Shown piece by piece: positions 40,039 through 60,309 of a stretch of DNA of 64,000 nt (positions are counted from its first letter, which is position 1; every line of letters begins with the position of its first letter). The notes beneath the pieces were generated by a model. It saw only the letters and a list, made by a program, of their open reading frames with translations. It was not told the origin of the DNA and did no database searches. Position numbers and translations under genes: made by a program. The stretch comes from an uncultured Bacilli bacterium (lineage in GTDB: Bacteria; Bacillota_I; Bacilli_A; RF39; UBA660), in the NCBI GenBank assembly GCA_947629655.1, contig CANREL010000004.1, forward strand, positions 13,577 to 77,576. The letters are read 5' to 3'.

Positions 40039-40069
40039 TATATTGATAATAATAGGAAGGGTTGATTTG

Positions 40070-40426
40070 ATGAAAAATAAGCAAAGTGGTCAAGCATTAA
40101 TAGAATTTGTCATTATTTTACCAGTTGTGATCTTGCTTATTTTTTCTTTTGTAGATTTGGGTAGAATTGTTTTAGAAAATAATAGATTAGAGAATTTAAC
40201 TACGAGTGTTATTGAAAAATATAATGAGACTAAAAAATATGATGATGTCATTTCTTATATCGATTCATTAGGATATGAAAAAGTTGATTTATCTATTTCT
40301 GCACATGATGATATGTTGACGATTAAACTCACTGAAAAAATTGACTTAGTTACGCCAGGACTTTCAAAAATCATGGGTGATCCTTATAAAGTTGAAGTAG
40401 AGAGAGTTGTTAAATATGAAAAATGA
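40070..40426 (+). CDS. TadE-like pseudopilin
   Basis: N-terminus MKNKQSGQALIEFVIILPVVILLIF matches the TadE-type hydrophobic segment (G/xxxxE[FY]). I prefer the ATG at 40070 over the track start at 40043. Confidence 0.65.
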   Translation: MKNKQSGQALIEFVIILPVVILLIFSFVDLGRIVLENNRLENLTTSVIEKYNETKKYDDVISYIDSLGYEKVDLSISAHDDMLTIKLTEKIDLVTPGLSKIMGDPYKVEVERVVKYEK

Positions 40427-41192
40427 AAAAGGTCAAGTATTAGTTCTTTTCATAATGATTTTACCACTTCTATTATTAGGAGGAGCGTGTATCGTTGATT
40501 CTTCTTATATGTTATATCAAAAAAATCGTTTAGATAATATAAATCGTGATGTTTTGAATAGTGTCAATAATAGTTCTTCTTTGAGTGAAGAAGTAATTGA
40601 TGAAATAATTAGAGAAAATGATGCGAAAATTGTCAATGATGAGATATCGATTGATGAGAAAATTGTGATTAAAAATCATGTGATGGTCGATAGCCTATTT
40701 GGAAAGATAATAGGTATTGATAAATATAGAGTCAATTCAGAAGTCAGTGTAAAAGCTAAGAGATTGATATTAGATATCGATAGTTTAAAGAATATTGATA
40801 ATACTGGTAATTATTCAGTTATCAATAATAATGTCATTTATGATGGAGGATTAGTTTTTAAAGATTCTGATTTGGTGATTAATAATTTTAATATGAATGG
40901 TGACTTTGAGATAAATATTTCTTTTTCATTTGAAAAAAATGGTAATTTATTAGAATTCAATAATCTTTTGATAAATATTAGTAATGATGAATTATTCATA
41001 AATGGAAAAAGAGTTACTAGTTTAAAAATTGGTGAAAAATATGATTTAGTCATAACTAAAGATCGAGTTGTATTAAATGGTGATAGTTCAGTATCTTCTA
41101 ATGATATTGACAATTATTCTGGTGATTTGATCATTGGTAAGGGATTCAGTGGAAAAATAGAATTCATAAAAATATATAATATTGGAAATTAG
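40416..41192 (+). CDS. TadG/TadF-like pseudopilin with a C-terminal LamG-like (concanavalin-type) domain
   Basis: N-terminus MKNEKGQVLVLFIMILPLLLLGGACIVD. The C-terminus ends LIIGKGFSGKIEFIKIYN, which resembles the F-x-G-x-I-D-E-V-R-I-Y-N signature of LamG-like domains. Confidence 0.5.
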   Translation: MKNEKGQVLVLFIMILPLLLLGGACIVDSSYMLYQKNRLDNINRDVLNSVNNSSSLSEEVIDEIIRENDAKIVNDEISIDEKIVIKNHVMVDSLFGKIIGIDKYRVNSEVSVKAKRLILDIDSLKNIDNTGNYSVINNNVIYDGGLVFKDSDLVINNFNMNGDFEINISFSFEKNGNLLEFNNLLINISNDELFINGKRVTSLKIGEKYDLVITKDRVVLNGDSSVSSNDIDNYSGDLIIGKGFSGKIEFIKIYNIGN

Positions 41193-41200
41193 GTGAAAAT

Positions 41201-41974
41201 ATGGAAAGTAAAAAAGGTAAAATTCTTACGATTACATCAATGAAGGGTGGAGTTGGAAAAACGATGGTGACGATGCTTCTAGCTAATGTTTTTTCGAAAT
41301 GTGGTAAAAAAGTATTAGTTGTCGATTTGGATTTATACAATGGTAATTTAGCTTTTGCTTATAAAACTAGAGTAAAAAGTTCTATCTATAATTTGTGTGA
41401 TGACATAGCTAATAATCGTTTAGTCAATGGAATAACATCTGAATACGTTTCAAAGATAAGTGATAATTTATACTTTATCGCGGCACCTAAGGATCCACGT
41501 CAAGCTAATAAGATTGATAATAAATATCTCGATAGCATTTTGAAATCATTATCTTTTTTATACGATGTCATTTTAATCGATACTAATCATATATTAAGTG
41601 TTTCTAACATGGTCGCTTTTGAAAACAGTTATAAGATTGTTGACCTTGTCACCAATGACAGCTTTGATTTACAGAGTACGAAGAGTTTTGTGGCCATCTG
41701 TAAGAACATGGGTGTTGACAATTTAGTTTTGATGTTAAATAACGCCATTGATTCACGAAGAGGTTACTATACGACTTATGACATGAAAAATATTACGAAG
41801 AAGAATATTGATTATACAATTCCAAGCGCTTTCTATTTAAAGAATTTTGATCAGTTGGTAATGGATGGTAAGATTGGTTTCTTTGATGAATATTTAAAGG
41901 GTGAAGCTAAAAAGAGTTTGGAAGATTTTGCTGGTCACATGTTAAGTCTCATTGATGATGGAGGTAAGGAATAA
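41201..41974 (+). CDS. TadZ/CpaE-like ParA/MinD-family ATPase
   Basis: Deviant Walker A motif SMKGGVGKT and a DTNH Walker B-like motif. It sits immediately upstream of the CpaF ATPase. Confidence 0.7.
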   Translation: MESKKGKILTITSMKGGVGKTMVTMLLANVFSKCGKKVLVVDLDLYNGNLAFAYKTRVKSSIYNLCDDIANNRLVNGITSEYVSKISDNLYFIAAPKDPRQANKIDNKYLDSILKSLSFLYDVILIDTNHILSVSNMVAFENSYKIVDLVTNDSFDLQSTKSFVAICKNMGVDNLVLMLNNAIDSRRGYYTTYDMKNITKKNIDYTIPSAFYLKNFDQLVMDGKIGFFDEYLKGEAKKSLEDFAGHMLSLIDDGGKE

Positions 41975-43359
41975 TGAAGAAATCTAGTTGGTTAGAAGAA
42001 TTTGATGTAGTTGATCTATCTCCTAAAGTTGATACTCATGAATCTGATTATGAAGTGTTTGAAGATAAGAAGTTACTCGACAATTTTAGAAATAGTATCA
42101 TTCAGGAATTGATCGATAGTAATATAAGTGATAATAGTAATTTATCACAATACATAAATGAAGAAATAGACCGCATTACTGATGGATATGATTTGAGTGG
42201 TCAAGAGAGAAATTATCTTTTGAATTTGATTGAAAATGAAGTTAATGGTTATGGACCAATTACGGAGCTTTTGGATGATAAAAACGTTACAGAAATAATG
42301 ATAAATGGTCCAGATGAAATATATATTGAAGTCGATGGTGTTCTATCACGTGATAAAAGTGTTTCTTTTATCAATGCTGATCACATCATTCGAACTGTTC
42401 AAAGAATAATTCAACCCCTTGGTAGAACGATAGATTCCGCAAGTCCGATGGTCGATTCGCGACTTCCTGACGGTTCAAGAATTAATGCGATCATTCCACC
42501 ATTGTCTGTCAAAGGACCAGTGGTGACAATTCGTAAATTTAAAGATGATATCGACAATATCGATTCTCTAATTGGTAATGGAACACTAACACCTTATATG
42601 GCTAGATTTTTAGATGCCTGTGTCGATGCACGATTAAATATTTTGGTCTGTGGTGGTACTGGTAGTGGTAAGACGACACTTCTAAACGTCTTATCAAACT
42701 TTATCGGTAATGAAGAGAGAATAATCACGATTGAGGATGCTGTCGAATTGCGATTAAAACAAGATCATGTCATTTCACTTGAGACTAAAAGTACTAACTA
42801 TGATCAAGAAGGCGAAGTGACAATTCGTGATTTGGTCAGAAACTCATTACGTATGCGACCTGACCGCATAATTGTTGGTGAAGTTCGTGGTAAAGAAGCA
42901 TTTGATATGCTTCAAGCGATGAATACTGGTCATGATGGAAGTTTGACTACGTTGCATGCCAATGGTTGTAGAGACGCTTTAAATAGACTTGAAACGATGA
43001 TTTTAATGGGTGAGTTGGAACTTCCTATCAAAGCTATCCGCGGTTATATAGAAAGCGCAATTGATATCGTCATATCAGTTGAAAGATTGAGTGATGGTAA
43101 GAGAAAAGTTACATCAATATCAGAAATTGTCGGTTTTGATGGGGAAAACATTCAATTAAAAGAAATATTTGGTTTTATTAAACATGGATTGACGGAAAGT
43201 AAAGAGGTAAATGGAGAATTCATCCTATACGATTACGTTCCAGAAGTTTATGAAAAGATTAAGAGTCGTGGTATTAATACCATTGATGACATGTTTGTAA
43301 AAGAGGAAAAAAAGAAAAAAAGTTCAGTTAAAAAAACAACAAAAAAGACTAAAAAGTAG
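41974..43359 (+). CDS. tadA: Tad/Cpa secretion ATPase (TadA/CpaF family)
   Basis: Motifs VTEIMINGPDEIYIE, GGTGSGKTTLLN, RPDRIIVGEVRGKEAFDMLQAMNTGHDGSLTTLHAN. It ends in a K-rich C-terminal tail. Confidence 0.9.
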   Translation: MKKSSWLEEFDVVDLSPKVDTHESDYEVFEDKKLLDNFRNSIIQELIDSNISDNSNLSQYINEEIDRITDGYDLSGQERNYLLNLIENEVNGYGPITELLDDKNVTEIMINGPDEIYIEVDGVLSRDKSVSFINADHIIRTVQRIIQPLGRTIDSASPMVDSRLPDGSRINAIIPPLSVKGPVVTIRKFKDDIDNIDSLIGNGTLTPYMARFLDACVDARLNILVCGGTGSGKTTLLNVLSNFIGNEERIITIEDAVELRLKQDHVISLETKSTNYDQEGEVTIRDLVRNSLRMRPDRIIVGEVRGKEAFDMLQAMNTGHDGSLTTLHANGCRDALNRLETMILMGELELPIKAIRGYIESAIDIVISVERLSDGKRKVTSISEIVGFDGENIQLKEIFGFIKHGLTESKEVNGEFILYDYVPEVYEKIKSRGINTIDDMFVKEEKKKKSSVKKTTKKTKK

Positions 43360-43370
43360 GAAGTGATAAA

Positions 43371-44387
43371 ATGGATACAGCACTTGATATAATCATTTTT
43401 ATAATTCAAGTGATAACAGGATTTGTACTGTTGTACATCGCTTATCGTCTATTCAGATTTTATCGAACAGTAGGGTTTGATAAGCGCTTTGGACCTTATT
43501 CTGTCGAATTGTTAGAAGATGATAGTGAATCGTTTTTTGACATGGTCAGTTATTATTATGACAAAGTACAAAATTATCTTTCAAAGTCTTTGATAAAAAT
43601 AAAAATATTTGATAGTTATAGTAAAAAATATGAAAAGTATAGTTATGGAAAAAGAGTTAATGCGATAGATGATATGAATTATATATCGAAAAAGATATTC
43701 ATTGGTTTACTATGTGTATTTCTACTATTATTCTCTTGTATTTTTAGATATGTACACGTAAGTTTACTATCGATTTTATTAGCTTTCTTAGTAGGTTTTT
43801 TTGCTCTTGATGTCTATTTGATAATTTATGATAGAATGCGAAAAAACAGTATTGAAAAAGATATTAATAAAGCGGTCATCATCATGAATAATGCCTTTAA
43901 ATCAGGTTATAGTATCATGCAGGCAATATACCTTGTCCATACACAAATGGATGGGGCGATAAGTGAAGAATTTAGAAAGATGTACATCGATATTACTTTT
44001 GGGTTGAACATGGAAGTAGTCTTTAATCGTTTCGCTGATCGCGTTGATTGTGTTGAAGCTCGCTACATGGCTACATCTTTAGGTGTTGTCAATAGGACTG
44101 GTGGAAATATCATTCAAGTTTTTGATGCCGTTGAAAGAAATGCTACGACGAGGCAACGATTGAAAGAAGAACTTAGCAGTGTTTCAGCATCGGCTCGTGC
44201 TATGTTTAAGATTTTGGTATGCATTCCAATATTCATAATTGGTATTCTATTGATTTTAAATCCTACTTATTTTGCACCACTATTCAAAACACCAATAGGT
44301 ATTTTGTGTTTGTTATTGAGTGTGATCATATATGTTTTATACATCATCATCATTAGAAAAATTATATATGTGGAGGTTGATTTATGA
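43371..44387 (+). CDS. tadB: TadB-like platform protein (T2SS-F domain)
   Basis: Polytopic protein with a GspF-like cytoplasmic domain (MNNAFKSGYSIMQAIYLV...EEFRKMYIDITFGLNMEVVFNRFADRV). Confidence 0.75.
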   Translation: MDTALDIIIFIIQVITGFVLLYIAYRLFRFYRTVGFDKRFGPYSVELLEDDSESFFDMVSYYYDKVQNYLSKSLIKIKIFDSYSKKYEKYSYGKRVNAIDDMNYISKKIFIGLLCVFLLLFSCIFRYVHVSLLSILLAFLVGFFALDVYLIIYDRMRKNSIEKDINKAVIIMNNAFKSGYSIMQAIYLVHTQMDGAISEEFRKMYIDITFGLNMEVVFNRFADRVDCVEARYMATSLGVVNRTGGNIIQVFDAVERNATTRQRLKEELSSVSASARAMFKILVCIPIFIIGILLILNPTYFAPLFKTPIGILCLLLSVIIYVLYIIIIRKIIYVEVDL

Positions 44388-45097
44388 AAAAGGTAAAGAA
44401 TAAGAAAAGAACTCTTTCACGTAGTATTTTTTCTAAGAGACAAATCGATAGAATTCAAAGAAAAATCGATTTATTAGGTGAAAATAGTAAATTTGATGCG
44501 ATTTTCTTCTTAAATTTGCGCTTTATTTCTTCCATAGTTCTATTTTTAGTGGTATTATATGTATTTGAGTTGGGGTACTTCTTAGCACCACTAATCACGT
44601 TTATTTACTATTATTTAATTTACTATCTTTTAATTGAATACAATATAAATAAGAGATGTGATAAATTAGATGTTGAAGCGATGTATTTTTTTGAAGTTAT
44701 GACTTTGGCATTAGAATCTGGTAATAATTTAAAAAATGCTTTAGATATGACTTGTAGTAATGTGGACAATGAATTGTCTAGAGAATTTCGTAAAGCTCTT
44801 GATGAAGTTGATTACGGAAAGAGTTTGAATGAAGCTTTAGAGAGTTTGAAGCTTAGAATACCTTCGGATACAATTAACAATATTATTTTGAATATCATGC
44901 AATCTAATATTTTTGGTAATAATATAACTAATGATATGTACAATCAATTGGATTACATTAGAGATAGAGAAATTCAAAAAGCTAAGAGTAGAATTAGTAA
45001 AATACCTCTATACGTATCAGTCATTTCAGTCGTATTTTATGTACCTTTGATAATGTTGTTGATTTTATCACCAGTTATAATAGAATTTTTAAGTTAG
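44384..45097 (+). CDS. tadC: TadC-like platform protein (T2SS-F domain)
   Basis: Overlaps tadB by 4 nt. It has a GspF-like domain (LALESGNNLKNALDMT...REFRKALDEVDYGKSLNEALESL). Confidence 0.7.
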   Translation: MKKVKNKKRTLSRSIFSKRQIDRIQRKIDLLGENSKFDAIFFLNLRFISSIVLFLVVLYVFELGYFLAPLITFIYYYLIYYLLIEYNINKRCDKLDVEAMYFFEVMTLALESGNNLKNALDMTCSNVDNELSREFRKALDEVDYGKSLNEALESLKLRIPSDTINNIILNIMQSNIFGNNITNDMYNQLDYIRDREIQKAKSRISKIPLYVSVISVVFYVPLIMLLILSPVIIEFLS

Positions 45098-45108
45098 GAG
45101 ATGTTAAA

Positions 45109-45828
45109 ATGAGTGGACATTCAAAGTGGGCAACTATCCATAGAAAAAAAGGATTATTGGATGCTGAAAGAGGAAAGATTTTCCAAAAGATTGCTAAAGA
45201 ATTATACGTAGCTGCGAAAGGGACAAATGGTAATCCAGATGATAACCCCGGTTTGCGCTTAGTAGTTGAAAAGGCAAAGAGTAATAACATGCCTAAAGAC
45301 AACATTCAAAAAGCGATTGATAAAGCTGTTAAATCAGCTGGTGGTGAAGACTATGAATCAGTTAGATACGAGGGATATGGTCCAAATGGTGTCGCATTCA
45401 TGGTTGATTGCTTAACTGATAATCGCAATAGAACAGCGATGCTTGTCAGATCAACTTTTACTAAACGTGGTGGAAATCTTGGAACTGACGGATCTGTTTC
45501 ATACATGTTTGAAAGACGTGGGGTTATCGTCATCGATAAAACTCTTGAAGAAGATGAAGCAATGATGGTATGCCTAGATAATGGTGCAGATGATTTCATC
45601 GTCAATGATGACAGTTATGAAATATATACGACACCTGATGATTTCATCAAAGTAAAGACAGCTTTAGAAGAAAGTGGTGTCAAAGAGTTTTTAACTAGTG
45701 AGATTACATATGTAGCTAATAATTTAGTTGAACTTGATGAAGAAGCAACAGAAAGAGTCATGGCCTTAGCTGATGCTCTAGATGAAATTGATGACGTTCA
45801 AAACGTATATCATAATTTGAGTATTTAA
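45109..45828 (+). CDS. yebC: YebC/PmpR-family transcriptional regulator
   Basis: Canonical N-terminus MSGHSKWATIHRKK, with family-wide collinearity. Confidence 0.92.
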   Translation: MSGHSKWATIHRKKGLLDAERGKIFQKIAKELYVAAKGTNGNPDDNPGLRLVVEKAKSNNMPKDNIQKAIDKAVKSAGGEDYESVRYEGYGPNGVAFMVDCLTDNRNRTAMLVRSTFTKRGGNLGTDGSVSYMFERRGVIVIDKTLEEDEAMMVCLDNGADDFIVNDDSYEIYTTPDDFIKVKTALEESGVKEFLTSEITYVANNLVELDEEATERVMALADALDEIDDVQNVYHNLSI

Positions 45829-49058: not shown

Positions 49059-49877
49059 ATGGAAGATTTAGAAAAACTTGGAAAGTTTGAAACTTTACAT
49101 TTAGGTGGAACTGGTACTATGTACTTAGTACATGGGGAAACAAAAAATTACATTTATAAACCGGCTGAAAGTAAGTTCAGTCATCAAAAAGAACCTTTTA
49201 GAGGAATAGTTCAAGAATGTGCTTATGAATTACAAGAGATAGTTGATCCAGTTTCAGCGGTCGTATGTAGATATGTTGATGCGGGAAAGATTTGTGGATC
49301 TGTTCAGGAACTGATCGTCGTTGATAAAAATGCTCCTGACTATAGAGATATGCAATATGCTGGTCAAATACCTGAATTATCATCTTCAGAAGTTGATCAA
49401 TTCATGAGAGAATTTGTAACTGATTATTTATTGTACAATTATGATTCACACGGAAAAAATTTTATAACTGACCAACAGGGAATCATTAGAGGTATTGACA
49501 AAGAACAATCTTTTAGATACATGCGTGAAAAGAAAGCGCAAACACTTGATTTGTATTACTCACCTAATGCGGCTTATGGTGAAGCTGAACCAATATACAA
49601 TACTATTTTTAGAGCGTATCGCGATGGTAAATTAGACATTGATTACAGTGTCATCAGTGGATGCATGGATAGAGTTGAAGCAGTCAGTGAAGACAGATAT
49701 CGCGCCATATTCGCTCCTTATTGTGAAGCTTGTGGTAAAGCTTTTGGTCAAAATCCTAATGAGATGTTAGATCAGATTGTCGCAAGACGCAATACGATGC
49801 GTGAAAAAGTGGATACTTTCTTTCAGGGATTGACTGAGGAACGCGAAGTTAATTTGAGTTCAGGAAAGGGAAAATAA
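49059..49877 (+). CDS. minimal PI3K/PI4K-fold kinase (type II PI4K-like), substrate unknown
   Basis: Blocks are collinear with human PI4K2A as I recall it. GGTGTMYLV...IYKPAE matches GSSGSYFV...VFKPKNEE. GSVQELIVV matches GSFQLFVE. DYLLYNYDSHGKNFI matches DYIIRNTDRGNDNWLI. GIDKEQSF matches AIDNGLAF. Confidence 0.6.
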   Translation: MEDLEKLGKFETLHLGGTGTMYLVHGETKNYIYKPAESKFSHQKEPFRGIVQECAYELQEIVDPVSAVVCRYVDAGKICGSVQELIVVDKNAPDYRDMQYAGQIPELSSSEVDQFMREFVTDYLLYNYDSHGKNFITDQQGIIRGIDKEQSFRYMREKKAQTLDLYYSPNAAYGEAEPIYNTIFRAYRDGKLDIDYSVISGCMDRVEAVSEDRYRAIFAPYCEACGKAFGQNPNEMLDQIVARRNTMREKVDTFFQGLTEEREVNLSSGKGK

Positions 49878-49878
49878 T

Positions 49879-51147
49879 ATGTTAGATAGTGAGGATAAGA
49901 AGTATAATTTTCATTCTCATACTTTTAGATGTGGTCATGCTTCAAATCTTCCTGATTCCACTTATTTAAATGTGGCTTTAAATAACAACTATAATAAGTA
50001 TGGTATTACTGACCATGCGCCTGTTCATCCCATTTTTTATGGCGATTCCAAAATGCGCATGAATGATAGTGAGCGATATGAATATATAAATGCGATTAAC
50101 AATTTGAAAGTGATGTATGCTAAAGAACTAGAAGTCTTTTGCGGATTTGAAGCTGAGTATGACGAAATTATTGAAGAGTATCTATGCGATTTGCGCGATA
50201 GTGTCGATTACATGATTTTGGGACAACACTATGTCTTAAATAGAGATATTAGAAAAAGTCCCAATTATCCAATAGAGTATGCGAAAAAAGTTTGTAAAGG
50301 AATTGAGAGCGGTTTATTCGACATCGTTGCTCATCCTGATATCTTTATGAAATTTCGCACTTCTTTAAAAGATGATGATAGTAGAGAAACATTCATGAAA
50401 AATGCTTACTTAGCATCAAAAATGATTTGTGCTAAAGCAAAGGAATATAATGTACCGCTAGAATTAAATTTAGGAGGAGTCCACATCTTTCCTCGAAAGA
50501 GAATTGAAAGTTTAGATATTGCTCTACCAACTGATTTCTTTCAAGATGATGATGATATGGATTATATCGATTATCCAACAAATTTATTTTGGAATATAGC
50601 TATTGAAATGGGAAATAGTGCTGTCGTTGGAATCGATGCACATTTTCCAAATGAAATTGAAGATCGTGAAGAAAAATTAGAAAGAATTAATCGATATATT
50701 GATCTCTCTAAAATAAATTTTTTACCAAATTCTTATGATCCTGTTAAAGCACGTTTAAACAATCCCAAATTGGAAGAAGCATATCAAAAGACGAAGGACA
50801 GTTTAAATTCAGTTGAAGCGCGATTAATAGATGACATAGTTAGTAAGAGTCTTGAAAGTGATAAAGAAGTTAAGCGTCATTCTTTGGCAACACAAATATC
50901 ACGCAGTTTGAAGTCACCAACTCATATTAGAGCGGTTCCCTTTGGCAATGGTTTTCTAACTCAAGATCAAATATATGACGACATGACTAAAAGAAATAGA
51001 GATGAGTTAGCAATTGTCGCAAGAAATGGTATCATGAGAACAAAAAGTCGTGATAGTGATATTTTTAGAACAGAACTACTAAATGAAATAGATGCTTATT
51101 ACCGTCATCAAGAAGTTGTTAATAAAGAGATTAAAAAGAATAAATAA
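49879..51147 (+). CDS. PHP-domain phosphoesterase (HisJ/histidinol-phosphatase-like) with a ~130-aa C-terminal extension
   Basis: Metal-binding blocks FHSHTFRCGHA, GITDHAP, GFEAEY, ILGQHY, VAHPD and GIDAH. The ATG lies 1 nt after the kinase stop (TAAtATG). Confidence 0.8.
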   Translation: MLDSEDKKYNFHSHTFRCGHASNLPDSTYLNVALNNNYNKYGITDHAPVHPIFYGDSKMRMNDSERYEYINAINNLKVMYAKELEVFCGFEAEYDEIIEEYLCDLRDSVDYMILGQHYVLNRDIRKSPNYPIEYAKKVCKGIESGLFDIVAHPDIFMKFRTSLKDDDSRETFMKNAYLASKMICAKAKEYNVPLELNLGGVHIFPRKRIESLDIALPTDFFQDDDDMDYIDYPTNLFWNIAIEMGNSAVVGIDAHFPNEIEDREEKLERINRYIDLSKINFLPNSYDPVKARLNNPKLEEAYQKTKDSLNSVEARLIDDIVSKSLESDKEVKRHSLATQISRSLKSPTHIRAVPFGNGFLTQDQIYDDMTKRNRDELAIVARNGIMRTKSRDSDIFRTELLNEIDAYYRHQEVVNKEIKKNK

Positions 51148-51148
51148 T

Positions 51149-51180
51149 AAAGAGTAAAACTTGTTTTTACTCTTTTGTTT
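51149..51180 (+). terminator. rho-independent terminator
   Basis: Hairpin aaagagtaaaa/cttg/tttttactcttt followed by a T-rich tract. Confidence 0.7.
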
Positions 51181-51210
51181 TGATAAAATATTGTTAGAAT
51201 AAGATAGTGG

Positions 51211-52503
51211 GTGAAAAAGATGGTTAATGTGTCAAATAAAAAGATATTATCGCTAACGCTTAATGAACTTATTAATATATCTTTAGATGATACTTTAGTC
51301 ATGTTGAATAATGATTTGACCAAAGTGGATAAGTATAGTTCTGATTATGCTTTATCAATCGCATCAGCTATCGTAAAAAGAATATTTTTAATTAAGAATT
51401 TTGCCCATCAATATGATAAATTTTATAAAATAATAACTTCTAATGAATTTAGAAATAATAAATATATTTATAGTGCTTTAAAAGATGAAAATACAACGCT
51501 TAGTGATTTGTTAGACGTCTATGATGATGCTGAAGAATTGACTAGTCTCATCGATGCCATTCTCATGAAAAATGAAAAGATGTTTGATGAATTAGTCTAT
51601 GGTCAATACAATGTACGTGAATTGTTTTCTTTAGAATTTGTCAATAAATTTAATCATAATTCTTTTAAAAGAATTTTATCTTTTTTGTTGAAAGATAGTG
51701 ATAGAAAAAGAGTTGTTAAAGCTCTATTCAAAAATAAGAATAATAAATTCATATACATGGTATCAAAAATGGATGATGTCGTTTTACAATACAGTAAAGA
51801 TGATACGAGTTATTTAGATGCCGTTTTAGTCATGTTAAATTACAACAATTATCGTCATCTCTTATGGGATTATTACAATAAATATATTGGTAATATAGAA
51901 AATGAGAATCTTATGAACAGTCCAGAATATCGTAAAGAAGTACCTGATGAGTTAAAAGAATTATTAAATTATACTTTTGCACTGATGGATTATAAGTATT
52001 TAAATGACAAAGTTCCTGAGATAATATCTAGTATCGATGAGTTGATAAGTTCTTTAAATGAAGGAAAAGATATGGTTCATACTACTGTTTTTGGGGTCAG
52101 TGGTTATGAAAAGGTCAAGAATGAAAGTTTTGATATCTTATTTGATTTTCCAAAGATGGATGATGAAAATAAATTGTTGAATTTAAAGATTGCTTTTTTT
52201 AGTAATATATATGGTATAACTTATGATCAAGCAGGGAAAATAATTGATAATTTTGATGATTTTATGAAAGATTTTGATGGATCTTTTGATAAAAAAGATC
52301 AATTGATATATGAGACAGTGATAGCGATGAAGTCTTTATATGATTTAAAGTTAGATGATAAAGATGGAATTGATCTATATCGTGAAGTATATTATAAATA
52401 TGTTAAAAAGAATGGATTATATGCTCCCGTTGAGTTATCAGCGGCAATCATGATGGAAGAGTTGATGCATAGAATGTATGAGAATTCTATAGAAATAATC
52501 TAG
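51211..52503 (+). CDS. paralog A4: N-terminal module only (430 aa) of the large protein family
   Basis: Collinear with the N-terminal ~500 aa of A1-A3 (for example TTVFGVSGYEKVKN...NIYGITYDQAGKII...YKYVKKNGLY...LMHRMYENS). It ends just before the position of the conserved core. The start is GTG 51211 or ATG 51220. Confidence 0.75.
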   Translation: MKKMVNVSNKKILSLTLNELINISLDDTLVMLNNDLTKVDKYSSDYALSIASAIVKRIFLIKNFAHQYDKFYKIITSNEFRNNKYIYSALKDENTTLSDLLDVYDDAEELTSLIDAILMKNEKMFDELVYGQYNVRELFSLEFVNKFNHNSFKRILSFLLKDSDRKRVVKALFKNKNNKFIYMVSKMDDVVLQYSKDDTSYLDAVLVMLNYNNYRHLLWDYYNKYIGNIENENLMNSPEYRKEVPDELKELLNYTFALMDYKYLNDKVPEIISSIDELISSLNEGKDMVHTTVFGVSGYEKVKNESFDILFDFPKMDDENKLLNLKIAFFSNIYGITYDQAGKIIDNFDDFMKDFDGSFDKKDQLIYETVIAMKSLYDLKLDDKDGIDLYREVYYKYVKKNGLYAPVELSAAIMMEELMHRMYENSIEII

Positions 52504-53729: not shown

Positions 53730-56700
53730 ATGGATGATCAAAGTATTGATAATGATTCTTTCTTGGAAGAAGATGATTTATATAGTGCAGTTGTAAACTC
53801 AGATGAAGAATTCGATGATGAGGATTTAGAAGATACACTTGATTTAGGTCTCTTTTCTAAAAATGATATGGACGAATCACCTAGTTTTGACGATGAAGAA
53901 GACTTACCGGAATTAGATAGTGATACTTTAAATGATCCTTTTCAAGATCCCTTTGATTCATCTTTGAGTAAAAGTTTCTTTCCACAGATGCAGGCCGTTT
54001 TAAAAAAGAGTGAAGCTATTGCTGTTAAACCAAGTATTTTAGATAAAAAAATTGTTGAATTAGAATCTATTCCCATTCAGGAATTGAGTGAAAAATTACT
54101 TGAAGAGATTAGAAGTTTAGAAAGTGAGACACCAGAATTTAGAAATGCACAATTACAAAGTATTTTTTCAAGAATATTAGAATTTCAACCAGTCAATAAG
54201 GCCGGTTCAACAAATGATTCGCATTTTGAAAAATATGAACAGAGATTGTTTACTGATCTAGTAAGTGCGATTGGCCTTTCCGATATCGATTTTGTCAAAG
54301 ACTTTTTAAAGTCAAGTTTTAAGTACGGCGGAAATAGTAGTAAAGTTCAACAGCGAAAATTATTATTACAAGTATTCGATTATTATGATACTCATTCTGA
54401 AGATGCCATTGAAAAATTCAATTACATATTTAGAAGTAGTGAAGCTATAGGTATAATGTTACTTGATGAACCAGAACTTTTAAAGACGCAATATTTTTCT
54501 AATCGTGTCATGGAACTATTTAGTAAAGAAAGTTTATCGCAACTTTATAGATTTAAATTTGTGATGGGTTATCAAGAGTTGGAGAATTTAGTCAAAGAAG
54601 AAAATGCTAAAGCTCTTTTTGTCGTTTCCCAAATGTGTAATTATAGTACCAATGTCATCGGTCATGATTTTGAATTCATGTCAGCTGTTTTTAAACAAAT
54701 TTCAACAAATCCAAAATTTTTTCAGTTGTTGAGTGATTCTTATGATTCTTTAGTTCATGGTGATGAAAAAGCTCATATGGCCAAAAAGGAATTAGAACCC
54801 GAATTTCGTAAATTGATGAATTATATATTGAATCAGTCATATGATAAAAGAGCGCTTGGTAGAAGTGACCATAGTAATATTTCAACACTTGCTGATTTTA
54901 TGAAATATGTTTCTAAACAGAGTGAAGAATTTCATGATTATGTCGTTAGACCTGGTACTTTATCAAAGATAGAAGATGAAACTTTTGATCCTGAAAATGA
55001 TTTCTTGAAAATTACTGATAAACAAGATTTACAAAATTTTAAACGTGGTATATTGATGGGAATTTATGGTATAAGTTTTGAAGAAGCTAAACATTACGTA
55101 TCACAATATGGTCAATACATGGAAGCTTTGGAAAAAGGAATTGTCGATGAAGATAAAGAAATTCTTCAGGTTTTAAAATCCATATGTTCAATTGTCAAAC
55201 TAGATGAAACTGATCAAAATTTTGAATCAAAAATTAGTCAGTTACAAACTGCTTATGCATATCAGATTAAGAAAAATGGACCTTATTTCCAAGATAAATA
55301 CGTTTCGACGATGATTCTTCAAGGTTTATTCAATAGAATGATAATGAATACTTATAACAAGAGAAATCTTTTAGCTTCCAGTTGTGAAGAACTTGGACGT
55401 GATGACGATGTAGTCTTGTTGGATGCGGGATATGATTTTGATATGGTAGTAACGTCTTTTAGTGGCGTTGAGAGTTTTTATCAATCTGGAGTTAATATGG
55501 CTAGTAAGTGGAATACGGCAGCTCTATCAGAAGGTCAAGGTCTTTGTGTATCACATATTTCTTCTCAAAATTTAGGAGTAATTTCTTTACAATCTCCAAT
55601 TATTGGATTTAGTAAGATTCCACAATACGCTTTAGATAGTATGGGACCAAATGATATATTCACTAATATCTCCAGTTATAATTTGCGCATGTTAAATGAA
55701 AATCGTGGTCGTGTTCAAAATCGTTTTTTCATTCCAGCTAATGTCATGTCTGATGAACAGCGATATGGTTATAATGAGATTTTGCTTGAAAGATTTTTAT
55801 CACAAGATGAAAAAGGCGATATCAAAATACAACCTAGTTATGTGGTATGTTATAAGATGAATGAAAATTATAAACAGTCTTTAAATTATAAACAATCTTT
55901 GAAAGTAGCTAAAGACTTTGGCATTCCAATGGTTGTCGTCGATGTCATGAAGATTAAGGAAAAAGAACAAAGTATCATCGAAGAACAACAACAACAATTG
56001 TTGAGTAGTGAAAAAGTCGATCTTGCAATGATGCATGATATTGTGACGCGATATATGAATAATTATACGGGATCTTTGACCATGTGTTGGGAGAATCAAT
56101 CTGATTGGCGCTATAGAGAAGATTTCTCAGTACCGGGAATGCGTAATTTTTTTGATGAAGTATTTCGAAAAATTTCCAGTATTGATGATGAAAATTTACA
56201 AAAAGAGTGGTTGGATGCTTTAGAATTCGCTTATCGTGATGAAAAGAGAAAGAATGATTCTGCTCATAAAGTTAGCAGTTATAAAGGATCAGTTCGAGGA
56301 TTTATTTTTGATCGTGATATGGAGAGTGGTGGATTTGATCTGTTGACTAGAATTACTGATGCAAGAAATGGAAAGTTCACTTATGCAAGCGAAGTGTATG
56401 TGGAAGATGAACCAACTGCTGATTTAGGTATTGTAACGCAAGTTAAAGTTACTAAAGTCATGTTATCGGATGGTGTCACAGAAGGTATTTTTGTCACTCC
56501 ACAAGAACTTAAAGAGGAAGATATTGCCATTATCAGTCTAACTAATGCGATGGAGATGGGTTCAACTTTTGACCTTGAAGATTATTCTCTAAATGGAGTT
56601 GATGGTTTTGCCATAAAATATAATGAGGTAGAAGATCAAGATGTTGTCGCAGCTGAAAATTTAGTCGTAAGTTATCTATTTGCCAATTTTGAAAGTGCCT

Positions 56701-57098
56701 TTATTGAAGATGTAGGTTTTGATCTCGGTAAGAAAGTGGCTGATGAATATGAATTGAATTTGGAACCAAACTATGACGTCACCTACAAATTTGATAACTC
56801 ATTATATAGTTCGGTATTCAATAAGAATTCGGAGAATCATCTCGATTTCAACCACGATATAATGGATAAGTACATCACTAAGATAGAGACGATGGACGAT
56901 AAAGATTTCTTAAAGATATTTACGCCAGTAATAGATAAAAAAGCAAGTGCTCTACAAAAGAGTCAAGAAGAGATAGGTGCCATTCTATTGGATCGCAAAG
57001 CCAATATTCGTTCACAATTCAACAACTTAGAACAGCACATCGCTATTGTTAATGGTGAAGCAGTAGACGTTATCAGTGATCATTTATCAACAAAGTAA
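53730..57098 (+). CDS. large uncharacterised cytoplasmic protein, paralog A2 (1122 aa) with an acidic N-terminal tail
   Basis: The first ~80 aa are D/E-rich. The rest is collinear with A1 and A3. The conserved core lies at nt ~55410-56085. Confidence 0.8.
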   Translation: MDDQSIDNDSFLEEDDLYSAVVNSDEEFDDEDLEDTLDLGLFSKNDMDESPSFDDEEDLPELDSDTLNDPFQDPFDSSLSKSFFPQMQAVLKKSEAIAVKPSILDKKIVELESIPIQELSEKLLEEIRSLESETPEFRNAQLQSIFSRILEFQPVNKAGSTNDSHFEKYEQRLFTDLVSAIGLSDIDFVKDFLKSSFKYGGNSSKVQQRKLLLQVFDYYDTHSEDAIEKFNYIFRSSEAIGIMLLDEPELLKTQYFSNRVMELFSKESLSQLYRFKFVMGYQELENLVKEENAKALFVVSQMCNYSTNVIGHDFEFMSAVFKQISTNPKFFQLLSDSYDSLVHGDEKAHMAKKELEPEFRKLMNYILNQSYDKRALGRSDHSNISTLADFMKYVSKQSEEFHDYVVRPGTLSKIEDETFDPENDFLKITDKQDLQNFKRGILMGIYGISFEEAKHYVSQYGQYMEALEKGIVDEDKEILQVLKSICSIVKLDETDQNFESKISQLQTAYAYQIKKNGPYFQDKYVSTMILQGLFNRMIMNTYNKRNLLASSCEELGRDDDVVLLDAGYDFDMVVTSFSGVESFYQSGVNMASKWNTAALSEGQGLCVSHISSQNLGVISLQSPIIGFSKIPQYALDSMGPNDIFTNISSYNLRMLNENRGRVQNRFFIPANVMSDEQRYGYNEILLERFLSQDEKGDIKIQPSYVVCYKMNENYKQSLNYKQSLKVAKDFGIPMVVVDVMKIKEKEQSIIEEQQQQLLSSEKVDLAMMHDIVTRYMNNYTGSLTMCWENQSDWRYREDFSVPGMRNFFDEVFRKISSIDDENLQKEWLDALEFAYRDEKRKNDSAHKVSSYKGSVRGFIFDRDMESGGFDLLTRITDARNGKFTYASEVYVEDEPTADLGIVTQVKVTKVMLSDGVTEGIFVTPQELKEEDIAIISLTNAMEMGSTFDLEDYSLNGVDGFAIKYNEVEDQDVVAAENLVVSYLFANFESAFIEDVGFDLGKKVADEYELNLEPNYDVTYKFDNSLYSSVFNKNSENHLDFNHDIMDKYITKIETMDDKDFLKIFTPVIDKKASALQKSQEEIGAILLDRKANIRSQFNNLEQHIAIVNGEAVDVISDHLSTK

Positions 57099-57110: not shown

Positions 57111-60092
57111 ATGGAAAAGAAAACAGAAGAAATTGTCCTAAAGAAAAATTTTATGCCATCGATGAGTATGGTATTCGGTTTTCTAAGTCAAAATAAATTT
57201 ATCAATATGTCGATTAATAAGATGGAAGAGAAAGATATTGAAGAAGTTAGAGCGATTCTTTTGAATGATGTCAAAGAGTTAAAAGACAAAAATCAAGCTG
57301 TCCAAAAACAACAACTTCAAAAAATTTTTTCCAAGATCTTTGCTCTTCAACCATATCTCAATCAACGATTAAAAGATAGAAGTTTGCGAAGTACAGAGCA
57401 GCGCCTATATGCTGATCTAATTTTGACACCTGGTTTATTCGATCTCGATTACGTCGATAATTTTATTAGAAATGATTTTGTCAATAATGAGAAAAATCGT
57501 TTTAAATATGAATCTTTGATTGAAATATTAGATTATCGAAAAGGTTTATCAGATGAATCACGAGAAAAATTTGATTATTGTTATCGCAGTAGTGTTAAAT
57601 TTGCTAATTCTTTAATAAATAATCCAAATATAATTAGTCATTTACTAACGGAAAGAAATTTACAAATGTTTAGTAAAGAAACATTGTCACACATTTTTAG
57701 ATTTTTAAATTCTGGTGAAGATATCTCTAATTTATTTGCTGAAGAAAATAGTAAAGTATTATTTATCTTTTCACAGATGTGTGATGCTGTATATAAAAAA
57801 GTTGGACATGAAAGCGAAGTATTAGATGCCGGTTATCGAATGTTGAGAGATGCCGATTTTAAAGAAATTCTAAATGACTATTATGACAAATATGTTGGTA
57901 GTCAAGATAATGAAAATGACTTTAAAAAAAGAGTTGGTTTGGCTAATTCAGTTGAAATGCAAGAACTCTTTAATTACATGGTTACTCAAGGCTATAATTT
58001 CAGTTATGGTTCTAAAACTTTTTCTGATATTCATACCATAGAAGAATTTATGAATTTCGTAAGAGAAGAAAGAGAAAATAATCATATTGTTGTATTTGGA
58101 AAAGAGAATTATGAAAGAATAAAAAATGGTCATTTGGATGATGATATAACTTTTAAAAAGATAACAGATGAAGATGAGTTAAAAGAGTTTAAAAAAGCTG
58201 TTTTAGAAAATATATATGGAATCAATACATTTGAAGCAAGTCACATCACTAGAACTTATGGAAATTATTTAGAGGAGTTACAGAAATGTCTCAATGAAAA
58301 TGATAAAGTTACTTTTGAAATATTGGAAGCGATTGTCAAGATTGATAAAATGGAACTCGATAATGAAGATGATATCAAACACATTCAAAGAGCTTATTGG
58401 AAATATGTTAAAGAAAAAGGTTTGGATCATCGAAAAGAATATTCTTCAATTTTAGTATTAGATGGATTGTTAAACAGAATGTATATGAATACATATAGTG
58501 ATATTTTGTTTGATGAAAAAGATAAGAGAACTATTAGAGTTGATGATGGTGTACCAGTAATTGATGCGGGAGTCGAATTCAACATGATCGTCACTGCTTT
58601 AAATGGAGCACAAAAGTTTTTACAAAGAGGCGTTAACATTGCCAGTAAATGGAATACAGCTATGATGGAAGATAGACAGGGATTGTGTGCTTCTTTTATC
58701 AATAATTCCAATTTGGGAACAATTACTCTTAATGGTCCTTTATTAGGATTTAAAAATTTGCCCAAAGATTGTTTGAATGCGATGGGTACTACTGATATAT
58801 ATACGACTCCAGGATCTTTCAACTTGCGTTATTACAATCGAAGTCATACACTTTTTGTACCGGGACCAAATTTAGCTGATGAGACCCGATATGGTTACAA
58901 TGAGATGTTGTTAGATAGATTTTTATCAAAAGATGAAGACAATCAATTAAAACTTCAACCGGATTATGTCATCTATTACAAGACAGAAGAACCTTATCAG
59001 ACTAGTATGCGTTATGAAATGTGTTTAAAGACCGCTAAAGAATTTGGAATACCATTAGTTGTCGTCGACTATGAAAAAATCAAGAAAAATGAAAAAAAAG
59101 TTATCCATGAAATGGAACAAGAATTATTTTCAAAAGAAGAAGTTAATAAAGATTTATTAGTAGATATAATGAGTAGATATATGAACAATATCAGTGGAAC
59201 TAGAACGATTCATGGACCTACTAAATTTGGTGGTTTACACGTCAAAGATGAAGATACTTTTCCAACTGGTGATTTAAGAATTTTTATCAATGATGTGGAA
59301 CGTAGATGTGAATATATAACTGATGCAGAAAAGAAGGAAAAATGGATCGAGGCTTTTGAAGCAGCTTATGAAAATGAACAGCGAAAACATTTTGTAGCGG
59401 TCAGTGTCAATTCATATAATTGTTCAATTGGCGCTGATAAAGTTGAATTTATGTTGATGAGTGAATATGATGTTGGAAATCGCATAAAACGCTTGAAAAA
59501 AGTAGAAGAAGAAACAATAGAAGAAGAGGGAATATTTTATAAATCAAGAGATGTTCCTGGGGATATGGATGCTCTTTGTCTATTATCCAATGCTTTAGAT
59601 TTCAATACGCAGTACGACATTGTTGAAAAATACAATGATGAAGGAGAATATGGATATTATTATCAAGTAAAAAAGAATAGTAAAGAACCTAGTATTGAAG
59701 AAAAGTTAATCGTTTCTTATCTAACTGATAATTATGATACAGATTTATTGAAAGAGATGCACGATGATATCAAGACTAAAAATGTTAAATTCAATATTCC
59801 TGATAATAGGAATTTAACTGAACATGTAATGTCTTCACCAATATTTAGTAATGTTCAATATGATCAAAATAAACTAGATGGTATCATTGAAAAAATAGAA
59901 AAGATGAATGAAAAAGATTTTATCAACTTATTTGGAGCACATATTGTAGATAAATCTGATAAATATCACATAGATGTTGATACTGTTGCTTATGAGATAT
60001 CGCTTAAAAAGAGTAGTATTCGTGAAGATTTTAACAATTTGAATAATTTTATTAATAAAGGTTCAGAAGAAATAGTAGTGAAAGGAAAGTAG
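57111..60092 (+). CDS. large uncharacterised cytoplasmic protein, paralog A3 (993 aa)
   Basis: Starts 12 nt after A2, behind AGGGGAG. The conserved core lies at nt ~58548-59210. Confidence 0.8.
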   Translation: MEKKTEEIVLKKNFMPSMSMVFGFLSQNKFINMSINKMEEKDIEEVRAILLNDVKELKDKNQAVQKQQLQKIFSKIFALQPYLNQRLKDRSLRSTEQRLYADLILTPGLFDLDYVDNFIRNDFVNNEKNRFKYESLIEILDYRKGLSDESREKFDYCYRSSVKFANSLINNPNIISHLLTERNLQMFSKETLSHIFRFLNSGEDISNLFAEENSKVLFIFSQMCDAVYKKVGHESEVLDAGYRMLRDADFKEILNDYYDKYVGSQDNENDFKKRVGLANSVEMQELFNYMVTQGYNFSYGSKTFSDIHTIEEFMNFVREERENNHIVVFGKENYERIKNGHLDDDITFKKITDEDELKEFKKAVLENIYGINTFEASHITRTYGNYLEELQKCLNENDKVTFEILEAIVKIDKMELDNEDDIKHIQRAYWKYVKEKGLDHRKEYSSILVLDGLLNRMYMNTYSDILFDEKDKRTIRVDDGVPVIDAGVEFNMIVTALNGAQKFLQRGVNIASKWNTAMMEDRQGLCASFINNSNLGTITLNGPLLGFKNLPKDCLNAMGTTDIYTTPGSFNLRYYNRSHTLFVPGPNLADETRYGYNEMLLDRFLSKDEDNQLKLQPDYVIYYKTEEPYQTSMRYEMCLKTAKEFGIPLVVVDYEKIKKNEKKVIHEMEQELFSKEEVNKDLLVDIMSRYMNNISGTRTIHGPTKFGGLHVKDEDTFPTGDLRIFINDVERRCEYITDAEKKEKWIEAFEAAYENEQRKHFVAVSVNSYNCSIGADKVEFMLMSEYDVGNRIKRLKKVEEETIEEEGIFYKSRDVPGDMDALCLLSNALDFNTQYDIVEKYNDEGEYGYYYQVKKNSKEPSIEEKLIVSYLTDNYDTDLLKEMHDDIKTKNVKFNIPDNRNLTEHVMSSPIFSNVQYDQNKLDGIIEKIEKMNEKDFINLFGAHIVDKSDKYHIDVDTVAYEISLKKSSIREDFNNLNNFINKGSEEIVVKGK

Positions 60093-60096
60093 AGAG

Positions 60097-60309
60097 ATGA
60101 AAGCAAGTGAATTGAGAAGAATTGTTGAAGAAAAAAAGGGTGTTAACAATGAGAGAAGTACTAGTAGTATTTCTAATTTAGATGATGATTATGGAAGTTA
60201 TCATGAGACTATTCTCAATAATTATTTAGAGGATGTCGGTGCTATTTCTAAATATATTAATGATGGATTAAAAGAAGTAGAAAAAAATAAGAATTTACCA
60301 AACGTTTAG
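60097..60309 (+). CDS. 70-aa protein homologous to the N-terminal leader of the ADP-ribosylglycohydrolase
   Basis: ATG lies 4 nt after the A3 stop and has an AGGAAAG RBS. TILNNYLEDVGAISKYINDGLKEVEKN aligns with ARH SILDDYLKDVGPISKFINEGFEEIDRD (14/27 identical, the rest mostly conservative). Confidence 0.6.
   Translation: MKASELRRIVEEKKGVNNERSTSSISNLDDDYGSYHETILNNYLEDVGAISKYINDGLKEVEKNKNLPNV

Follow-up and report, generated by a model that had tools for sequence, protein, structure and literature searches.

The nearest structural analogues of phosphatidylinositol 4-kinase (PI4K) type IIα are protein kinases, namely CtkA, Golgi casein kinase, and actin-fragmin kinase, and the inserts I1-I3 have been described as unique to PI4KII (PMC3974213). 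Another group, Kinase-PolyVal (Iyer, Burroughs, Anand, de Souza & Aravind 2017), lacks the entire C-terminal subdomain and is typical of Verrucomicrobia, Chlamydiae, and Bacteroidetes (PMC5512222). Here, we describe a pair of adjacent genes in a 64,000-nucleotide stretch of DNA from an uncultured Bacilli bacterium (assembly GCA_947629655.1, contig CANREL010000004.1, positions 13,577 to 77,576), which we call the window. The first gene encodes a 272-aa protein and the second a 422-aa PHP phosphoesterase. The 272-aa protein is a kinase of the protein kinase-like (PKL) fold with an intact active site and is apparently active; by profile comparison, it belongs neither to the PI4K-II family nor to the HipA family. 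Its link with PHP is real but facultative.

The motifs that led a preliminary description of this DNA to call the 272-aa protein a kinase (GGTGTMYLV...IYKP, GSVQELIVV, DSHGKNF, and GIDKEQSF) are all present in the translation and coincide with invariant columns. They contribute the G-loop (G16-G-T-G19), the ATP-binding Lys (K34), the hinge Gln (Q83), the catalytic loop (D129-S-H-G-K-N134), and the metal-binding D147-K-E-Q; the αC Glu is E53. Close homologs were found in 35 clusters, and G16, G17, G19, K34, E53, Q83, D129, N134, D147, K148, E149, and Q150 are invariant in 33 close homologs. A wider set, drawn from genomes as well as from phages and viral contigs, comprises 126 distinct domain sequences, and all 126 keep K34, Q83, E118, D122, N127, D129, N134, F135, D147, K148, E149, Q150, and F152. 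Loss of the catalytic Asp or Lys in homologs, which had been named in advance as the observation that would speak against a kinase, is thus not the case for K34, D129, or D147. An AlphaFold2 model based on the close-homolog alignment (predicted local distance difference test score, pLDDT, 92; predicted template modeling score, pTM, 0.90) retains a helical C-lobe (H158-268), and the protein has the bilobal form, G-loop, ATP Lys/αC Glu pair, catalytic Asp/Asn loop, and metal-binding Asp of the PKL fold. Its structural neighbors are PI4K-II, CtkA, actin-fragmin kinase, Fam20, CotH, and HipA, which bears out the original kinase call. Apart from PI4K-II, the leading structural matches are protein kinases; HipA is a far more distant match than PI4K-II or CtkA.

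Likeness to type II PI4-kinases, also part of the preliminary description, holds at the level of the fold but not at the level of the family. The window kinase does not match PF00454 (PI3_PI4_kinase; gathering score 27.1 bits) at E<=0.1, and two of its relatives match it at sub-threshold scores of 17.3 and 19.3 bits. It shares 12% identity with PI4K IIα/β (4pla, 4hnd), and its 272-aa sequence has neither the palmitoylation insertion (CCPCC) nor the other inserts specific to PI4KII. Unlike the PI4K IIα/β enzymes, the family occurs in bacterial and phage contexts with protein-modifying fusion partners, and a lipid substrate is unlikely. The resemblance of the catalytic loop to HipA is likewise partial: HipA_C (PF07804) matches over residues 103-135, the catalytic loop only, at 15.3 bits against a cut-off of 30.5, so that the local likeness stands and membership in the HipA family does not. 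In further contrast to HipA/HipT, the protein is too short to hold a HipA N-terminal domain, and its neighbors are bigA and PHP, the latter a phosphoesterase, rather than HipB or HipS. CtkA (3akj), the proinflammatory Ser/Thr kinase JHP0940 of Helicobacter pylori, shares the fold, but no PDB sequence match to CtkA was obtained at E<=10 and the signature of the window kinase (DKEQxF) differs. Sequence searches of the PDB with the single kinase sequence and with its profile returned Bcl-xL and a calpain EF-hand (E 0.004-0.01) over helical stretches, which we rejected as chance matches. The kinase has no match in NCBIfam, PHROGs, or PADLOC.

Relatives of this kinase are numerous. A profile search of 1.8 billion representatives found at least 1313 clusters (at 50% identity) that match at E<=1e-3, 357 of them at <=1e-30, and many of these proteins are 1000-3500 aa long with the kinase domain internal or C-terminal. 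The majority of members are MuF head proteins of phages, about 1100 aa long, or giants of 2000-3000 aa. A genome survey of the domain gave 60 loci, nearly all from metagenome-assembled genomes of gut or rumen Firmicutes, in which free-standing kinases (261-295 aa) occur exclusively in an island with bigA, PHP, and ARH genes. The other architectures are MuF-kinase-Rho_N proteins of about 1100-1150 aa, giant proteins of 1800-3060 aa with a C-terminal kinase, fusions to an HD domain, and proteins of 570-690 aa with an N-terminal domain of ~290 aa that carries invariant R-G, S-T, and E-x-E motifs. Viral contigs in IMG/VR hold at least 99 matches, almost all of the MuF type and about 1120-1150 aa long. 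In addition, mycobacteriophage head proteins labeled "minor capsid and ADP-ribosyltransferase fusion" in GenBank carry the kinase domain without annotation. For example, BK061311 gp53 (L067, 2582-6124) has the order VG15/MuF, kinase, and ADPrib_exo_Tox, a bona fide ADP-ribosyltransferase (ART) domain, and in phage Onyinye gp16 (L068, 3266-7288) the kinase domain is N-terminal to the ART. Judged from these matches, the kinase is part of an uncurated, phage-centered branch of atypical kinases, and the free-standing window kinase is a rare form of a domain mostly built into phage and mobile-element proteins. A literature search found no paper describing the family; the kinase-like families of a 2026 preprint, including the phosphatase-bearing "LACHF", were not compared with it by sequence.

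The ~290-aa N-terminal domain (invariant R88-G, S101-T, and E153-x-E155) was observed at 14 loci (L026, L029-L033, L019, L040, L041, L044, L050-L052, and L065; for example, L033 7998-10076). By its motifs this R/STS/ExE domain is reminiscent of an ART, but we do not assign it as one, given an atypically short spacing of 13 residues from the Arg to the STS motif and no Pfam or PDB profile support. An unannotated ORF (open reading frame) of ~150 aa overlaps the stop codon of several of these fusion genes and of the kinase genes in L061 and L062.

Two described groups of phage and mobile-element proteins invite comparison. Like Kinase-PolyVal, the family places a kinase-fold domain inside multi-domain proteins of phages and conjugative elements, and the final strand of its N-lobe contains a conserved Gln. 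Unlike Kinase-PolyVal, it keeps its helical C-lobe, is found mainly in Firmicutes and in phages of Actinobacteria, and has no match in the Pfam kinase clan beyond the weak one to HipA_C, so that we do not assign it to that family. MuF polymorphic toxins with enzymatic immunity, such as the ART Tre1 with the ARH Tri1, resemble it in that most kinase relatives are MuF-fused and would be packaged in virions, and a neighboring enzyme could reverse the modification. The window kinase differs from these toxins in being free-standing in a conserved chromosomal island, with no MuF or other N-terminal trafficking domain.

The product of the second gene is a member of the PHP superfamily (PF02811, 34.8 bits against a cut-off of 26.4, E 2.7e-8). 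It was expected to retain all of its His/Asp/Glu metal ligands, and it does: H12, H14, H20, D45, H46, E91, H117, H152, D253, and H255 are invariant, and the ligand motifs (HxH, CGH, DH, E, H, H, DxH) align with those of the Thermus thermophilus histidinol phosphatase 2yxo. That enzyme (E 4e-12) is the best match among solved structures, followed by the histidinol phosphatase 3dcp. Despite this likeness to the HisJ family, PHP scores below the cut-offs of the HisJ models in NCBIfam (66.6 versus 90.2 bits for TIGR01856; 75.3 versus 202 bits for NF005596), and its immediate neighbors are kinase, bigA, p430, and ARH genes with no histidine-biosynthesis genes among them, the rest of the window not having been screened for his genes. 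It also differs in carrying a conserved C-terminal extension (about residues 265-422) after the core (about 1-265). The preliminary description had recognized this extension but put its length at ~130 aa, and it is closer to 150 aa. Its motif is YDPVxARxNNxKLxxAYxxTK...SVExRL...T370...L377, with P288, R292, N295, K297, T305, E313, and R315 invariant. The extension is present in both kinase-linked and kinase-free relatives (to about profile position 395), down to 32-40% identity. A relationship of the extension to the kinase or to bigA was rejected (hhalign probability <2%). PHROGs and PADLOC gave no match for PHP. A metagenome scan seeded with PHP returned mostly ordinary HisJ-like PHPs of 280-320 aa and 30-35% identity, with neither the extension nor kinase or bigA neighbors, and is uninformative on coupling.

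The stop codon of the kinase and the start codon of PHP lie 1 nt apart, as had been claimed, according to both the ORF coordinates and the junction sequence (...GGAAAGGGAAAA TAA t ATG), and Shine-Dalgarno-like purines occupy the final kinase codons. The arrangement of stop, 1 nt, and ATG is repeated in L001, L004, L009, L069, and L077, with a gap of 2 nt in L007 and an overlap of kinase and PHP in L010. The pair is kept in at least seven species-level loci at 50-69% identity. The kinase-PHP unit may be closed by an AU-rich hairpin just after PHP (Table 1), which resembles a weak terminator. With the 1-nt junction, this hairpin makes kinase and PHP look like a discrete, translationally coupled unit. 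A GC-biased terminator scan did not detect the hairpin, and consensus scans for promoters and terminators in the window DNA (30% GC) performed no better than on shuffled sequence. In an island variant that has no PHP (L008, 9965-10830), the kinase stop codon is followed directly by the AU-rich hairpin that in the window stands after PHP, suggesting a clean deletion of PHP.

Besides the conserved 1-nt coupling, evidence that a phosphatase belongs with the kinase comes from loci outside the island. In L019, L033, and L044, all of which lack bigA, the gene for an 800-aa protein of the same PHP subfamily precedes a kinase-fusion gene, with 6-9 nt between the two. At L026 and L029-L031, ~16 nt separate the kinase gene from the end of an upstream His_Phos_1 gene, whose product has RH(S) and SH motifs. 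In L053 and L059, an HD domain (PF01966, E 3e-11 and 2e-12) is fused N-terminally to the kinase itself, and L056 shares the N-terminal motifs. In L063, a 3061-aa kinase giant is followed by an HD_4-like gene and an ARH gene. The kinase domain is thus closely associated with phosphohydrolases of three unrelated folds: PHP (in two architectures), His_Phos_1, and the fused HD domain. The recurrence of non-homologous enzymes at an equivalent place argues more strongly than anything else for a functional tie between the kinase and a phosphatase activity. Active-looking genes for low-molecular-weight protein tyrosine phosphatase (LMW-PTP), with an intact CX5R(S) loop, also follow kinase giants in five genomes.

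Several observations weigh against an opposing kinase/phosphoesterase couple. We have downgraded the LMW-PTP genes as support: they overlap uvrC, with 270-370 nt between them and the giant gene, and their adjacency may be inherited housekeeping synteny. The kinase occurs without PHP in L008, and no phosphatase was found near the phage MuF-kinase genes. Conversely, PHP follows bigA directly in the first module of L001, where there is no kinase, and PHP proteins with the extension also stand alone in chromosomes or precede a transglutaminase-like protein with SUKH immunity genes. In L071-L076 (for example, L071 8001-14833), a distant PHP with the extension is followed by a 75-aa ORF and then by a giant of 1640-1666 aa; these giants have a bigA core (E 2e-22) and no kinase domain, and the mobile elements that carry them have genes for resolvase, Mob_Pre, PemK, and transposase close by. 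Finally, the sequence of PHP resembles small-molecule histidinol phosphatases and not the PHP protein phosphatases. The opposing couple put forward in the preliminary description is therefore plausible, and the recurrent PHP, His_Phos_1, and fused HD domains strengthen it, but it is not exclusive, as each partner occurs without the other. PHP may equally serve the bigA core.

The pair is embedded in an island, as the preliminary description had proposed, and the island is a conserved syntenic block. The window, L001-L010, L069/070, and L077 share the gene order YebC, bigA (about 1000 aa), kinase, PHP, p430, ARH, bigA, and at times one more bigA (Table 1). The p430 gene after PHP is conserved in L001, L004, L007, and L009. 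ARH falls below the cut-offs of the NCBIfam models for Tri1 and DraG. The bigA proteins have no family match in Pfam, NCBIfam, PHROGs, or PADLOC and no informative structural match; p430 likewise matches no family or solved structure. The C-terminal module of bigA2 has lost the catalytic motifs of the kinase to which it is homologous (bigA2 versus kinase: LVVSYLFANFES versus FVTDYLLYNYDSHGKNF), and the bigA profile also matches kinase C-lobes elsewhere. Having lost the G-loop, Lys, D-x-H-x-x-N, and DKEQ motifs, the bigA C-termini are degenerate kinase copies, and those of bigA1, bigA2, and bigA3 may be pseudokinase docking modules.

Table 1. Coordinates of the kinase-PHP pair and of the surrounding island in the window
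Feature	Coordinates	Strand	Description
bigA1, 1026 aa	45878..48958	+	directly upstream of kinase; helical N-region, conserved α/β core, degenerate kinase-derived C-terminal module
Kinase ORF, 272 aa	49059..49877	+	ATG start; predicted stand-alone atypical PKL phosphotransferase
Coupling junction	49862..49881	+	purine-rich Shine-Dalgarno-like run (AGGAAAGGGAAAA) within kinase 3' end; TAA 49875-49877; 1 nt; PHP ATG 49879-49881
PHP ORF, 422 aa	49879..51147	+	ATG start; predicted HisJ-like metal-dependent phosphoesterase
AU-rich hairpin (10 bp) then U-run	51150..51182	+	just 3' of PHP stop; fold -8.4 to -9.5 kcal/mol, z -2.6
p430	51211..52503	+	copy of bigA helical N-terminal half, without core or C-terminal module; bigA profile 102-458, E 2e-49
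ARH, 367 aa	52538..53641	+	PF03747 E 9e-67; N-terminal extension ~47 aa; phrog_6572
bigA2	53730-57098	+	bigA paralog
bigA2 C-terminal module (residues 1008-1109)	56751..57056	+	homologous to kinase C-lobe helices; KIN profile E 1e-14; hhalign probability 93.6-95.9%
bigA3	57111-60092	+	bigA paralog, ends island; AlphaFold2 pLDDT 75

The α/β core of bigA (bigA3 residues ~470-660) contains invariant D485, C526, D562, R593, G-Y-N-E 595-598, K614, D653, E661, and R-Y-M-N-N 689-693, and it looks enzymatic. A divergent ART was considered as its identity and rejected (hhalign probability 0.1%). Small ORFs of 54-75 aa after bigA or p430 genes (window 60082-60306; L001 13323-13487 and 17006-17209) resemble residues 13-51 of the ARH N-terminal extension, suggesting that the extension also exists as a separate mini-protein. 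Directly upstream of the island (window 40043-45828) is a Tad/Flp-type pilus operon (TadE-like, ParA/CpaE-like ATPase, CpaF-type T2SSE, and two T2SSF genes) with YebC, and the same arrangement is present in L004.

The explanation we favor, tentatively and with a little less than even confidence, is an active PKL kinase that acts on protein, together with PHP as an eraser or immunity phosphatase, within the ARH/bigA island. The kinase would carry out ATP-dependent phosphorylation, most likely of a protein target on Ser or Thr. A protein target is suggested by the nearest structural analogues other than PI4K-II, which are protein kinases, and by fusion partners that are protein-modifying or virion-delivered. 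PHP would be translated off the same mRNA via the 1-nt stop/start junction, and most likely it would act as an eraser that removes the phosphate installed by the kinase, or as immunity that restrains the kinase product within the cell that makes it. ARH could have a parallel eraser role for ADP-ribosylation, a modification tied to the kinase by the phage fusions. This conceptual link to ARH, which the preliminary description had drawn, gains from recurrent ties, namely the fused ART in mycobacteriophages and ARH neighbors in the island and beside the kinase giant in L063. The same evidence gives no indication that ADP-ribose itself is a substrate of the kinase. Since the bigA C-termini are inactivated kinase copies, one may speculate that the bigA proteins act as substrates or, through this dead module, as docking partners; they may also be independent enzymes.

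One alternative is that the true partner of PHP is the bigA core, and that kinase and PHP are merely co-located in a multi-enzyme island. The free kinase would then have bigA as its target or its partner, for example by pairing with the dead kinase-like C-terminus of bigA. Active Fam20C pairs with the pseudokinase Fam20A, which provides a model for such a kinase-bigA pairing. The bigA-PHP module of L001 and the distant PHP proteins that precede kinase-free giants with a bigA core are both consistent with this arrangement, as is the homology of the bigA C-terminus to the kinase C-lobe with its catalytic motifs lost. It has more difficulty with the bigA-free loci L019, L033, and L044, in which the same PHP subfamily stands directly upstream of kinase fusions, and with the replacement of PHP by other phosphatase folds beside the kinase. 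Moreover, neither a fold nor a chemistry can be assigned to the bigA core, so that no mechanism can be proposed, and on balance we find this alternative doubtful. Alternatively, the pair might handle a small phosphorylated metabolite or nucleotide of NAD/ADP-ribose chemistry, with the kinase phosphorylating a derivative of ribose or of a nucleotide and the products being degraded by PHP and ARH. The PKL fold contains many small-molecule kinases, and PHP is most like HisJ-type small-molecule phosphatases. The ARH genes in the island and in L063 and the bona fide ART fused to the kinase in mycobacteriophage proteins also fit, and a small-molecule (ADP-ribose-related) role of the kinase is possible. 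Yet exoenzyme-type ART domains modify proteins, the best structural matches are (PI4K-II excepted) protein kinases, the pair has no NAD-salvage, Nudix, or macro genes next to it in the window, and nothing connects ADP-ribose with the kinase active site. We regard this account of the pair as unlikely.

The tight bicistron and the presence of relatives on mobile elements near PemK/MazF genes recall a HipA-like toxin-antitoxin pair, in which the kinase would be a growth-arresting toxin and PHP an enzymatic antitoxin. Against such a pair are the HipA_C score well short of its cut-off, the lack of a HipA N-terminal domain and of a HipB-type helix-turn-helix partner, the greater structural closeness of PI4K-II and CtkA, and the island itself, which is a stable chromosomal synteny across species, unlike typical toxin-antitoxin loci; we consider it quite improbable. 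We also consider it unlikely that the kinase acts on lipids, and we give hardly any credence to its being a true PI4K type II-like enzyme for phosphoinositides or other lipids. That reading draws on the weak PF00454 matches (17-19 bits) in two relatives. Set against these, the window kinase itself has no such match, lacks the CCPCC insertion and inserts I1-I3 (PMC3974213), and has no hydrophobic segment in its 272 aa; its family is fused to MuF, ART, HD, and Rho_N domains and not to membrane modules; and the PI4KII structure paper itself puts protein kinases as the closest analogues (PMC3974213).

Returning to a protein-directed kinase with a PHP eraser, a broader proposal can be built on it, which we offer as conjecture that is more apt to fail than to hold. 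The window kinase may belong to a very large undescribed family of virion-delivered PI4KII/CtkA-like kinases that are injected with ADP-ribosyltransferases by phages and mobile elements of Gram-positive bacteria and countered, by the cells or by those elements, with varied phosphatases according to availability (PHP, His_Phos_1, HD, and LMW-PTP). The island in the window would then be a domesticated, split form of such a polyvalent effector, with a live kinase, dead bigA copies, and PHP and ARH erasers (for phosphate and ADP-ribose, respectively), that performs dual reversible modification of a cellular target.

If these readings are correct, Pfam, NCBIfam, PHROGs, and PADLOC all lack a family of more than 1000 clusters at 50% identity, one that would rank as a major class among the effector kinases that phages and mobile elements carry in gut Firmicutes and actinobacteriophages. 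The "minor capsid and ADP-ribosyltransferase fusion" labels of mycobacteriophage proteins miss the kinase domain and are a misleading annotation. The recurrent pairing with non-homologous phosphatases leads to a testable hypothesis of write/erase or toxin/immunity function and gives a handle on the substrate. The idea that the pair writes and erases a phosphate is plausible and supported by comparative genomics, though unproven. In uncultured gut Bacilli, the analysis exposes a conserved island that appears to encode one live kinase and three pseudokinase-tailed proteins, together with PHP and ARH.

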